Below, in pieces: positions 19,106 through 59,323 of a stretch of DNA of 64,000 nucleotides. This stretch comes from a virus: the IMG/VR virus record IMGVR_UViG_3300002026_000004, positions 1-64,000 of that record; one strand, given 5' to 3'. The number at the start of each line of letters is the position of its first letter. The stretch's first letter is position 1. The notes below the pieces were generated by a model, which worked only from the letters and a program-made list of their open reading frames with translations, made no database searches and was not told the DNA's origin. A program made the translations under genes and the position numbers.

Positions 19106-19614
19106 TTAGTATACTCAAAACTCACTGAATTACATTTAAAAGATACTTGATACACAATAGGTTTAGAATCAGACCATCCTAATGTTAAACTAGGACACTT
19201 CTCTATCATAGCAGAATTAGTGCTTATAGTTAATGCTGGCGTATCCATACTATTACCATACGTAGTTATTTTTATATTTCTTTTTTTAGGAGGATTGCTC
19301 CCTACTTTATATGTGTTTGTAATAGGGTCAAACATAGAAGTGAACCAATCATTAAGGTATTTCAAAAAATAAAAATCAGAACTTTCCCTTACTGATAATG
19401 ATAAAGAGTTTATTTTATTACCTTTCTTAATAAAGAACTGTTTAATAGCTTCTGATTGTCCATATTCCATATTGTAACCATCTATTTGGATAGTCTCTAC
19501 TCGTAATTTGAACTTACTTATAGTAGGTTCTTCATTACCAATAACTATATCATATAGATTACTAAAAGCATTATTATCAGCGATATCAAGTAATGGTGTT
19601 ATGTTTATTCCCAT
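19102..19614 (-). CDS. Tail tube-like protein (paralogue 3; gp19/gp48/gp54 fold)
   Basis: Shares N-terminal AFSNLYDI and C-terminal beta pattern with the neighbouring tube paralogues. Confidence 0.65.
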   Translation of the reverse strand: MGINITPLLDIADNNAFSNLYDIVIGNEEPTISKFKLRVETIQIDGYNMEYGQSEAIKQFFIKKGNKINSLSLSVRESSDFYFLKYLNDWFTSMFDPITNTYKVGSNPPKKRNIKITTYGNSMDTPALTISTNSAMIEKCPSLTLGWSDSKPIVYQVSFKCNSVSFEYTK

Positions 19615-19630
19615 GTATAATTAGTATAAT

Positions 19631-29787: not shown

Positions 29788-30744
29788 TTATTGACTTTTT
29801 GGTATTATTCTTGGTGTTTTAATTCCACCGAAAGTAAACTTAATTTCAGCTTTCTCAGAACCATAGAGTATCTTATTCAATGCTGATTTAAGTTTTTCTG
29901 AGCCTCTGCCTGTAGTATAATGGGATAGAAATTGTTCATCAGAGACAGGTAATGCAGTTATTAACTGATAGTTAACTTTTAGTTCATTCTCTCTATCTTT
30001 AATTAAACTAACAAATTCCTTTAAATAATCCTTTTGACTAGCATATAGAATTAAATCAAATACAGAATCAAAATCATTTAGAATCTTTCTTTTTATCTCT
30101 GGCTTAATCTCAGGGAAAACTTGTGAAATGTTATCAGCAGTATCGCCGAATAATACTTTATCTAAAACTACTTTATCTTCAGTAGGGGTATAACCATGTT
30201 TATAAATAAACTCGGTAACACCTTTAGGAGAATCATAAATATTAGGTAAGTATAGAATAGAGTCAGTAAGGTACTTAGTCCAATCAGAATCATTAGTAAT
30301 TAATAATGCTGTTAAATCTTTTACTATTGTTCTTAAACAAGGTAATACTAAATCATCAGCTTCTAATTTCATAATTTGAACTGTATGAAAGTTTGTATCT
30401 GTAACCATGTAATAATACTTAATAAAATCTAATGACCAATAGAACTCATCGGTTTCTCTTTTTCTGTTAGCTTTATACGTTTCTTTTATTTCTTTTCTAC
30501 CAATGCCAGCAACAGGAGTAAAAGCTAATCGTAATTCTTCTTTAGAATTATGATTATCGAATAATAATATTACTTCTGAAGAGGAGTAGGTCTTAACCAA
30601 AGTATTAATAGTTTCTATATATTTAGAAACAAAGTTCTTATAAATGAACTTGTTTGATACTCTAGTTATGGACCTATCAATAACTGAATTTATTACATGG
30701 TAGCCTAAGTTGTTAGCATCTATAATGAGGTATTTGAACTCCAT
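29788..30744 (-). CDS. rnh: 5'-3' exonuclease/flap endonuclease (T4 RNase H-like)
   Basis: LIIDANN, YKANR, LEADD, ITNDSD, LFGDTADNI. Confidence 0.9.
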   Translation of the reverse strand: MEFKYLIIDANNLGYHVINSVIDRSITRVSNKFIYKNFVSKYIETINTLVKTYSSSEVILLFDNHNSKEELRLAFTPVAGIGRKEIKETYKANRKRETDEFYWSLDFIKYYYMVTDTNFHTVQIMKLEADDLVLPCLRTIVKDLTALLITNDSDWTKYLTDSILYLPNIYDSPKGVTEFIYKHGYTPTEDKVVLDKVLFGDTADNISQVFPEIKPEIKRKILNDFDSVFDLILYASQKDYLKEFVSLIKDRENELKVNYQLITALPVSDEQFLSHYTTGRGSEKLKSALNKILYGSEKAEIKFTFGGIKTPRIIPKSQ

Positions 30745-30762
30745 CCCTACTCCCCTTTTTAT

Positions 30763-39561: not shown

Positions 39562-39575
39562 TAACTAATTAGTTA
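39562..39575. promoter_or_regulatory. Palindromic bidirectional late promoter
   Basis: TAACTAATTAGTTA between the divergent terL and 39586 genes. Confidence 0.7.
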
Positions 39576-46849: not shown

Positions 46850-46874
46850 TGACTAATTAGTATAGGAGAACTGA

Positions 46875-47075
46875 ATGAAAATACTATTGCCACTGTCTAT
46901 AGATAATTGTCAGAGTGATTGTATTTTCTATCACGCCGATACATCTACTTCACCTTTTAGAGAGTTCTGTACATTTTCAATGAGAATGGAGGAAATTGAT
47001 TCTAGGAAATCATTAGTAGAAAATGATTGCCCTTTAATTAAGTTTGAAGTTAAATTAGAACTAAAAACCGAATAA
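46875..47075 (+). CDS. Small Cys-containing hypothetical protein
   Basis: ACTAATTAGT and AGGAG RBS upstream; CxxxC...C...CPL. Confidence 0.55.
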   Translation: MKILLPLSIDNCQSDCIFYHADTSTSPFREFCTFSMRMEEIDSRKSLVENDCPLIKFEVKLELKTE

Positions 47076-49199: not shown

Positions 49200-49853
49200 C
49201 TAAACGAAACTCTTTAAACCTTGAATTATTCTATTTTGGTTATTCTGAGAAGCCCAAACTGTGTTAATCCATACGAAATTAGTATCAATGAATCCAACCT
49301 CTTCATTCTCAGAAATAGCATAAAACTGTATAGGTTTTATTAACTTTAAGTTCTTCTCCCTAATTAATGTTCTTACATACTGAGTTACCTTAGTTTCAGA
49401 TTCTTCTTTTCCATTATAAAAATAAGAATATCCATAAGCTTTATCCATATAATATATAATTTGATTAAAAAATTTATCTTGAGGATTATACTCGCGGTGT
49501 TTATTTGGATAGAACCTTTGATTCTTTGGAAACGATGGGAGTAGTGTAACATTCTTCATCTTTGCTATATTATACAAACGCCAATAACGTGGCTTTCTAG
49601 CGTTATTAGTTATTTCTGTACCAAAGTTCTTATTACGAGAATAAGAGTATTTGTTTAATAAATATCCTCTAAAATAAATGCCCTTCTTACCTGAAGGCCA
49701 TTGTTTAACACCTAGAACAACAGGTTGAACAATACGGGGGTGTTCAGGAGATTCTGCATCTGGAAAGAAAGGAGACTTATTTGAAGAGTAATTAAATTGA
49801 ATTGGGCAATTTAGAGAGATTGCCTGTTTGAATAATTTTTCATACTGTGCCAT
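49200..49853 (-). CDS. WYL-like domain protein
   Basis: IQFNY...RIVQPVVLG...FRGY...YWRLYNIAKM. Confidence 0.6.
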   Translation of the reverse strand: MAQYEKLFKQAISLNCPIQFNYSSNKSPFFPDAESPEHPRIVQPVVLGVKQWPSGKKGIYFRGYLLNKYSYSRNKNFGTEITNNARKPRYWRLYNIAKMKNVTLLPSFPKNQRFYPNKHREYNPQDKFFNQIIYYMDKAYGYSYFYNGKEESETKVTQYVRTLIREKNLKLIKPIQFYAISENEEVGFIDTNFVWINTVWASQNNQNRIIQGLKSFV

Positions 49854-49884
49854 GTATAATTAGTTATATTATAACTAATACCTA

Positions 49885-56645: not shown

Positions 56646-56674
56646 TTGACAATTTGTCATAGTAGTTGTATACT
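56646..56674 (+). promoter_or_regulatory. Early sigma70-type promoter
   Basis: TTGACA-N17-TATACT. Confidence 0.85.
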
Positions 56675-56691: not shown

Positions 56692-57273
56692 ATGAATAAA
56701 GCAACAGAGTTGGATTACTTCTTAGTAAAAAGAATTAAGGAAAATAACGATGATAGTAGTAAACTAAAGCTATTTTACAAGTATAAGTACCTAGTTAAAG
56801 GAATGTATAATGAAAGCCTTTATTGGCTTAAAAGCTATATATCTGAAGAAGATTTTATTAATGAATCATATTTTGCTTTTATTAAGGCATTAGATTATTG
56901 CGATTTAACAAAAGTGTATTCACCTGAAAAATGGTTATTTCTAGGTTGTTTTAAAGATTGGTTATCTAACACAATTAGATTAATAAATGAAAAAGAAATG
57001 AGAATTTCTTATGTAAATGAAGATATTTTTAATATAGAAAGTTTTACATCCACCGTTAATAGAGAAAATAATAAAACTCTTAATGATATTCATGTTGATA
57101 AGTTCTATCAAAGCTTAAATGATAAAGAAAAAATAATCTTTTTTTATCGTTATAATTATGGTAAAGAGGATTATTCTATTCGTAGGCTTGCTGAAATGCT
57201 TGGATGTTCCCATCAATGGGTAAGTATTATGAATAAAAAGATTATAAAGAAATGGAAACATTATACATCGTAA
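56692..57273 (+). CDS. Phage sigma70-family factor (regions 2 and 4); candidate middle sigma
   Basis: LFYKYKYLV...EDFINESYFAFIKAL; LNDKEKIIF...YSIRRLAEMLGCSHQWVS (HTH). Confidence 0.8.
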   Translation: MNKATELDYFLVKRIKENNDDSSKLKLFYKYKYLVKGMYNESLYWLKSYISEEDFINESYFAFIKALDYCDLTKVYSPEKWLFLGCFKDWLSNTIRLINEKEMRISYVNEDIFNIESFTSTVNRENNKTLNDIHVDKFYQSLNDKEKIIFFYRYNYGKEDYSIRRLAEMLGCSHQWVSIMNKKIIKKWKHYTS

Positions 57274-57333
57274 TAAAAGTGAGAGCCACGTTGGAGGGGA
57301 ACGTGACTCTCTAAAAGGGAGGTAGGAGGACAT
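57272..57333 (-). ncRNA. Candidate ~60-nt late small RNA with three CCUCC anti-SD motifs
   Basis: ACTAATTA at 57336-57343; UCCUCCUACCUCCCUUUU, then a 12-bp stem with a CCCCUCC loop and a U-tract; stem fully paired only on the minus strand (G-U versus C-A). Confidence 0.55.
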
Positions 57334-57339
57334 AATAAT

Positions 57340-57358
57340 TAGTGAGATTAACTCACTA
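57340..57358 (-). terminator. Hairpin after hsp20, overlapping the late promoter
   Basis: TAGTGAG-ttaat-CTCACTA. Confidence 0.5.
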
Positions 57359-57363
57359 TATGT

Positions 57364-57798
57364 TTATTTTACCTTAATGTTTATTGATTTTGGTTTAGCT
57401 ACTTCTTTTGAAGGAATCTCAATAGAGAGCAATCCATTCTCAATTTTAGCTTCTACCTTATCCACATCATAATGGGATATTGGTACGAAGAACTTAGCCT
57501 CTGCTTTGCACTTTTTAATTCCCTTCTGACGATACATAACTTTTTCTGTTTCTTCTTTTGGTGTTAATTTTAATACTAAATAATCATTAGTAAAATCAAC
57601 AGAAACTTCCTCATCAGAATACCCAGCAATAGCAAACTTATAAAGTAAAGAATTATCTTCTTTCTTAATAATGTCGCAAGGAGGGAATGCTGAAGAAACG
57701 AAAATGTCTGGTAATTTGGATGGAGCAAACGTGTTGAAGTCATCGAGAAATTCATCAATCAAGTCAGAAAAGGAACCTAAGCGATAGTGGGAGTTCAT
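57364..57798 (-). CDS. Small heat-shock protein (Hsp20); start reassigned to 57798
   Basis: FPPCDI, FAIAGY, AKIENGLLSIEIP, PKSINI; AGGAGG RBS. Confidence 0.92.
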   Translation of the reverse strand: MNSHYRLGSFSDLIDEFLDDFNTFAPSKLPDIFVSSAFPPCDIIKKEDNSLLYKFAIAGYSDEEVSVDFTNDYLVLKLTPKEETEKVMYRQKGIKKCKAEAKFFVPISHYDVDKVEAKIENGLLSIEIPSKEVAKPKSINIKVK

Positions 57799-57895
57799 AA
57801 AGAACCTCCTTAATAATATATACTTCTCCATACAGAGCAAGTTTCGATTAATTAGATTTCTACATATATAGACAATCTATATAATTAGTAGTTTA

Positions 57896-59313: not shown

Positions 59314-59323
59314 ACTAATTAGT
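59314..59323. promoter_or_regulatory. Palindromic bidirectional late promoter
   Basis: ACTAATTAGT between divergent genes. Confidence 0.7.

Follow-up and report, generated by a model that had tools for sequence, protein, structure and literature searches.

To our knowledge, few small RNAs of lytic phages have a known function. The locus described here raises the question of whether a 90-nt gap between two convergent genes of an uncultivated phage, hsp20 on the minus strand and a sigma-factor-like gene on the plus strand, encodes an RNA of this kind. A preliminary description of the sequence had placed in this gap a late small RNA carrying three copies of CCUCC, the core of the anti-Shine-Dalgarno (anti-SD) sequence, which in the 3' tail of 16S rRNA is followed by a U-rich run. 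Our analysis indicates that the element is very probably a real, conserved and structured RNA unit with a sequence-specific function. The explanation that accounts best for the evidence as a whole, to which we assign a probability of about 50%, is that of a phage small RNA (sRNA), conserved and transcribed on its own, that would pair with SD regions.

The window, the stretch of 64 kb that was analyzed, is the first part of a 100,236-nt IMG/VR virus record (G000) with a GC content of ~30.5-30.6% and a coding share of 94%. CheckV estimates the record to be about 37% complete, which could correspond to a full genome of ~270 kb. The record belongs to a large uncultivated phage whose lineage is an orphan in DNA comparisons and for the majority of its proteins.

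Layout and fold of the minus-strand unit

Read directly on the minus strand, the sequence at 57272-57343 agrees base for base with that given in the preliminary description. The whole unit (57343-57272) is made up of a promoter motif, a spacer, a C-rich tract, a hairpin and a U-tract, in that order. The motif is an exact copy of the late-type 8-mer ACTAATTA (57343-57336, minus strand) and is followed on the same strand by the 6-nt spacer TTATGT (57335-57330), the C-rich tract CCTCCTACCTCCC (57329-57317), and TTTTA (57316-57312), which lies between the tract and the stem. In the RNA, the unpaired 5' tract thus reads CCUCCUACCUCCC followed by UUUUA (57329-57312). The terminator hairpin (57311-57281, minus strand) has a 12-bp stem, with the 5' arm GAGAGTCACGTT (57311-57300) and the 3' arm AACGTGGCTCTC (57292-57281) enclosing the 7-nt loop CCCCTCC (57299-57293). 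The tail ACTTTTATT (57280-57272), which becomes the U-tract ACUUUUAUU in the RNA, extends into the stop codon with which the convergent sigma-like gene (56692-57273, plus strand) ends.

Two copies of CCTCC are found in the C-rich tract (57325-57329 and 57318-57322) and the third in the loop (57293-57297). The predicted fold of the minus strand (-28.4 kcal/mol, z -6.6) does not involve the C-rich tract, and both position and fold bear out the proposal of two single-stranded motifs and one in the loop. The preliminary description had also argued that a G-U pair favors the C-rich strand. There is one such pair in the stem (U57306-G57286), and the plus strand folds less well (z -3.4) because this pair becomes an A-C mismatch there. 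The element was rightly described as a GC-rich island, with a module GC content of 43% compared to 30.5% for the genome. A GC-rich hairpin directly followed by a U-tract, the hallmark of a Rho-independent terminator, is present on the minus strand only. By analogy with three late genes that have an ATG 3 nt past the motif, we infer that transcription would start at A57333 or G57331.

The late-type motif

The 8-mer ACTAATTA occurs 31-32 times in the record. About 28 of these copies are intergenic, and 21 sit no more than 60 nt upstream of a start. The motif precedes the genes for the tail tube, tail sheath and a tail protein as well as hsp20, and the label of late promoter given to it in the preliminary description is therefore a fair reading, in keeping with its intergenic bias. 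The copy at 57336-57343 is the only intergenic one in the window without a plausible SD-led open reading frame (ORF) behind it. Its flanks are atypical, with a C at position -1 that is found at 0 of 19 gene-proximal training sites and at all three copies of the putative sRNA gene, that of the window and those of the two relatives described below. The motif is placed at a fixed 6-nt offset from the C-rich tract in all three copies, and each of the two relatives has one mismatch in its core (ACTAACTA in L003 and ACTAATTG in L005). Both relatives also have ACTAATTA upstream of genes of their own, and the motif is thus common to the three phages. Because of the atypical flanks and of the mismatch in the core of both relatives, this copy should be regarded as a putative promoter and its late timing as tentative.

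Conservation of the unit in two relatives

Relatives of this phage are rare in the collections that were searched. DNA and protein queries with the locus, the sigma-like protein and the tail sheath found none among GenBank phages, the tail sheath and sigma-like proteins had none in IMG/VR, and the Hsp20 protein matched GenBank phages only at ~30% identity, in unrelated phages. In the viral_contigs collection, single-protein queries (sigma, Hsp20, sheath) returned no useful relatives, the exact hairpin pattern gave 0 matches, a scan with the module pattern gave seven chance matches and the already known L003 contig, and alignment of the clamp-like neighbor returned only a contig that had already been found. 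The same module-pattern scan of genome_contigs yielded two matches, both due to chance, and an alignment search with Hsp20 retrieved nothing there. Relatives of hsp20 exist at 53-65% identity, and further ones are encoded on Logan/JGI contigs of up to 143,883 nt. Alignment of these relatives resolved two distinct loci, L003 and L005; L003, L004, L012 and L018 are one contig and were counted as one locus. The element family therefore comprises three copies (window, L003 and L005), two of which come from one metagenome.

The Hsp20 proteins of L003 and L005 are 59-61% identical to the window protein and the sigma-like proteins 22-24%. At conserved four-fold degenerate residues of hsp20, third codon positions are 32-35% identical, and synonymous sites are therefore saturated. 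Both relatives keep the synteny of hsp20, the convergent sigma-like gene and a clamp-like gene, and in both the module is found downstream of hsp20, in the same place as in the window. The order of its parts is the motif, a 6-nt spacer ending in TGTA, a C-rich tract, a U-rich run, a hairpin and a U-tract. The C-rich tract, CCCCUCCCCC in L003 and CCCCUCCCUCCC in L005, is predicted to be unpaired in all three copies, and the hairpin of the relatives has 11 bp and a loop that again contains CCUCC.

Covariation in relatives, proposed at the outset as a check, was found. Stem pairs were counted explicitly; the MAFFT alignments A2 and A7 had the window stem out of register. All 34 of 34 stem positions were paired, and eight of the 11 shared pairs carry compensatory double changes among the three copies, while the 5' arms agree at only 3-7 of 11 positions between copies. 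Across the three copies, tail and loop keep their CCUCC cores, the spacer keeps its TGT and its length, and the CCCUU run and the U-tract are fixed as well; the conserved core of the unpaired tract is CCUCCC(U)UUUU. The preliminary description had reasoned that a plain terminator would keep its stem and lose the CCUCC motifs. The reverse was observed, as the motifs are fixed while the sequence of the stem drifts. On the evidence of this comparison, the CCUCC motifs are functionally constrained, that is, under selection.

When the relatives alone were used to build a covariance model (R1), it matched the window copy with 40.3 bits (E 3.3e-7). This was the only significant match in the whole 100 kb record, which therefore has no paralogues of the element. 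Of the genome's 28 terminator-like hairpins, no other carries CCUCC in its loop, the remaining loops being A/U-rich, and none has an upstream tract as rich in C. Its uniqueness among these hairpins, together with its conservation at saturating divergence, argues that the arrangement is more than chance.

Resemblance to bacterial sRNAs that bind SD sequences

The closest architectural analogue that we found is LhrC of Listeria monocytogenes (RF00616). For this RNA, experiments have shown that CUCCC...UUUU motifs, located in single-stranded sequence and in the loop of the terminator, pair with the G-rich SD region of lapB (PMC4132741). The element shares with LhrC its redundant sites, their placement in single-stranded sequence and the terminator loop, and a G-poor RNA. 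Of all Rfam families, RF00616 alone came up in each of the three loci at the position and on the strand of the element, with scores of 23.0, 16.7 and 19.3 bits; set against a gathering threshold of 110, these values denote resemblance and not membership. No Rfam family matched the element, and the window had no match at the gathering threshold. LhrC is longer (111 nt compared to ~60 nt), and the element lacks stem-loop A of LhrC and its third site; a conserved 5' stem-loop with a C-rich loop is absent from the three copies. Unlike LhrC, the element is phage-encoded behind a phage late-type motif, and the likeness between the two is one of architecture, with no homology shown.

Other sRNAs, including RNAIII, RsaE, SprD and FsrA, use UCCC motifs against SD sequences (PMC4132741). 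The element resembles these RNAs (RsaE also under the name RoxS) in its exposed C-rich motifs complementary to the SD, and its AT-rich genome with strong SD-led genes recalls the low-GC Gram-positive setting of the UCCC sRNAs. They differ in being chromosomal and regulated by stress or quorum, and no sequence or Rfam match connects them to the element. The feature common to this class, C-rich motifs exposed in unpaired or loop positions of a short, intrinsically terminated RNA, is present in all three copies. The element is also similar to the 16S rRNA tail in its CCUCC core and U-rich sequence, but only the core is common to the three copies and the flanks differ.

Candidate targets

The preliminary description had proposed that the 5' segment of the RNA pairs with the ribosome-binding site (RBS) of an rnh-like exonuclease gene. 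The sequence match at 30745-30759 on the minus strand is real. The RBS, AAAAGGGGAGTAGGG (30759-30745), is of the AAAAGGGAGG type and lies directly before the ATG at 30744; it is the best RBS complement of the C-rich tract within the genome, ranking first among 107 RBSs with a predicted pairing of -22.6 kcal/mol. This makes it a candidate target, but 3.5% of same-composition shuffles equal the best RBS score, and two sites within coding sequences pair as well as or better than the rnh RBS. Across the 107 RBSs, the mean predicted affinity was no better than that of shuffles. The rnh RBS pairing is thus not exceptional, and no target stands out statistically. No rnh homologue was found in the 26 kb relative or the other fragments of the relatives, and no consistent target was seen across these fragments.

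Proposed function

The conservation of exposed CCUCC motifs within a promoter-to-terminator unit makes it probable that the product is a regulatory sRNA acting by base pairing at ribosome-binding sites. As interpreted in the preliminary description, the unit was strand-specific and its CCUCC motifs were functional, and conservation in the two relatives upholds this part of the interpretation; the silencing of mRNAs late in infection is a proposed role. In the mechanism that we propose, transcription from ACTAATTA or a one-mismatch variant would yield an RNA of ~58-62 nt. After 6 nt, this RNA would expose the unpaired C-rich 5' tract CCUCC...CCUCCCUUUU, and the loop of its intrinsic terminator would display a further CCUCC. 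The two exposed C-rich sites could then pair with the G-rich SD and the A-rich stretch upstream of it in particular phage or host mRNAs and so block 30S binding, at a late time if the late-type motif is a guide to timing.

Anti-SD function is plausible given the close bacterial precedent, the features conserved in the element being the ones by which C-rich sRNAs of bacteria keep ribosomes from binding. As the mechanism of the RNA, we consider anti-SD pairing an even proposition. The comparison presented here defines an sRNA gene family by comparative evidence alone, in an uncultivated and deeply divergent lineage of large phages. In the literature searched, coverage of which was incomplete, no phage-encoded anti-SD sRNA was found. 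If confirmed, the family would indicate that phages time translation in the course of infection by means of anti-SD seeds, and it would provide a compact, readily synthesized RNA for reporter tests of the anti-SD idea.

Neighboring transcripts and alternative explanations

The gene upstream of the unit on the same strand encodes the small heat-shock protein Hsp20 (57364-57798, minus strand). Between this gene and the unit is a 7-bp hairpin, TAGTGAG/CTCACTA (57340-57358), whose 3' arm overlaps the late motif. It receives a terminator-like score on each strand and is probably where the hsp20 transcript (minus strand) and the sigma transcript (plus strand) end; the corresponding hsp20-proximal hairpin of L005 likewise scores as a terminator on both strands. 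On the opposite side, the sigma-like gene is preceded at a distance of 18 nt by a match to TTGACA-N17-TATACT in 11 of 12 positions (56646-56674), a host-type and presumably early promoter that faces the small-RNA unit. No sigma70-type promoter was found near the unit in either relative. Counted from the hsp20 ATG favored by comparison with the relatives (57798), a separate late motif (57882-57889) is ~83 nt further upstream, and the long 5' leader so defined (57799-57889) could hold an RNA thermometer.

The convergent arrangement suggests that the RNA could act in cis. Lambda OOP, which acts on cII, and P22 sar are phage antisense RNAs, and the element is like them in being a short phage-encoded unit, running from promoter to terminator, that lies convergent with a regulatory gene and antisense to the 3' end of its transcript. 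The c4 RNA of P1 and P7, to which the same likeness applies, blocks an RBS by pairing from its loops (PMC12197685). In an OOP-like scheme, the late RNA would form a ~60-bp duplex with the sigma 3' untranslated region (UTR), leading to cleavage and shut-off of sigma. The geometry is in agreement with this. In each of the three phages, the sigma-like gene runs toward the unit from the other side, 0-10 nt separate its stop codon from the hairpin, and its overlap with the unit would fall in the 3' UTR. In all three copies, the U-tract after the hairpin is found only on the C-rich strand and the opposite strand continues as an A/G-rich run, and the sigma transcript is therefore expected to lie antisense across the whole unit. 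We infer that this transcript reads through the unit and ends at the hsp20-proximal hairpin. No other site in the genome comes close to the pairing energy of the perfect complement (-40.7 kcal/mol), and the early-type promoter match of the sigma-like gene would suit a late antagonist. Cis-antisense action does not, however, account for CCUCC cores that stay fixed in tail and loop while the stem drifts, since such an RNA is complementary to its target whatever its sequence. Overlap with the sigma coding region is minimal (0-3 nt), unlike in OOP-type systems, and there is no sequence relationship to those RNAs. The conserved C-rich motifs instead suggest recognition in trans, and we regard a mainly cis-antisense role of the RNA as a live but rather unlikely alternative. 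Cis-antisense and trans action are compatible and do not exclude one another.

A broader possibility combines the two, in that a late RNA could serve as a general anti-SD decoy, occupying strong SDs or competing with the 16S tail, and also act as antisense to the early sigma mRNA. Translation would then shift at the expense of host and early phage mRNAs that depend on an SD, leaderless-looking late genes with an ATG 3 nt past the motif, such as that for the tail tube, would escape, and one 60-nt RNA would be a translational shut-off switch of the phage. Most late genes of this phage are SD-led, and a general anti-SD action would therefore hit them too. We consider such a combined switch improbable.

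Equally doubtful is that the hairpin is simply the intrinsic terminator or 3' end of hsp20 and that its C-rich sequences have no function of their own. A GC-rich 12-bp stem with a U-tract does lie directly downstream of hsp20 on the same strand, and the hairpin in between is weak in the window (7 bp), so that hsp20 transcripts probably end at the element there. In the relatives, however, hsp20 has a strong hairpin and U-run terminator of its own, 40-60 nt upstream of the motif, which argues against taking the second hairpin simply as the terminator of hsp20 and in favor of a separate unit. An ordinary terminator would also leave two facts unexplained, the persistence of the motifs in the loop and upstream of the hairpin at a divergence that saturates synonymous sites, and the lack of C-rich sequence in the other 27 terminator-like hairpins.

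It is also conceivable that the G-rich strand is the functional one, with GGAGG or GGA in the 3' end of the sigma mRNA binding CsrA or the 30S subunit as a sponge or an SD-like stabilizer. As the complement of the conserved motifs, GGA/GGAGG does occur in the loop and the single-stranded tract of all three copies. CsrB/RsmZ-type sponges carry many GGA loops, whereas the element has one hairpin, and Rfam searches gave no significant Csr/Rsm match at the three loci. The plus strand has neither a U-tract after the hairpin nor a promoter motif, and it bears an A-C mismatch in the window stem. The CsrA sponge that the preliminary description offered as its alternative is accordingly disfavored, since it is the C-rich strand that carries the U-tract, the G-U pair and the promoter motif, and a functional G-rich strand of either kind seems quite unlikely. 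Small plus-strand ORFs after the GGAGG were rejected as well, with a GTG 12 nt downstream and peptides that are not conserved.

Little more can be said for a protein-binding decoy, in which the C-rich tract would sequester Rho or a KH/poly(C)-type protein without pairing to mRNA. The tract is C-rich, G-poor and unstructured, a rut-like composition, but at 13-18 nt it is far below the length of a Rho loading site, and its conserved core is specifically CCUCC, beyond general C-richness. No supporting protein evidence was found, and we consider this reading very unlikely. A leaderless small coding gene, a 72-aa minus-strand ORF (57115-57333) from the ATG at 57333, was rejected and has almost nothing to recommend it beyond that ATG being 2 nt past the motif (compared to 3 nt in three late genes), as the ORF crosses the terminator and continues antisense to sigma, the relatives have no equivalent start and differ in frames and start codons, and the compensatory stem changes alter its residues, which points to constraint on RNA pairing.

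Other occurrences of the late-type motif

Several further copies of ACTAATTA lie in unusual settings. An ATG exactly 3 nt past the motif, with no SD, is found at 19614-19625 and 49853-49864 in the window and at 76075-76088 of G000, outside the window. One of these three late genes is tail-tube-like, and they may be expressed from leaderless or near-leaderless mRNAs. A perfectly palindromic form of the motif, ACTAATTAGT, occurs at 39564-39573, 46852-46861 and 59314-59323 in the window and at 88509-88518 of G000. Three of the four palindromes are located between divergent genes, an arrangement that suggests bidirectional late promoters, and the copy at 46852 is in a convergent gap. This last copy was considered as a second sRNA locus and rejected because it drives an SD-led 66-aa ORF; the ORF (46875-47075) contains Cys, has a good SD directly behind the late motif, and is likely an unannotated small late gene. 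At 920-961, a 12-bp hairpin with a U-rich tail overlaps a late motif (954-961), and this overlap of terminator and promoter resembles that at 57340-57358.
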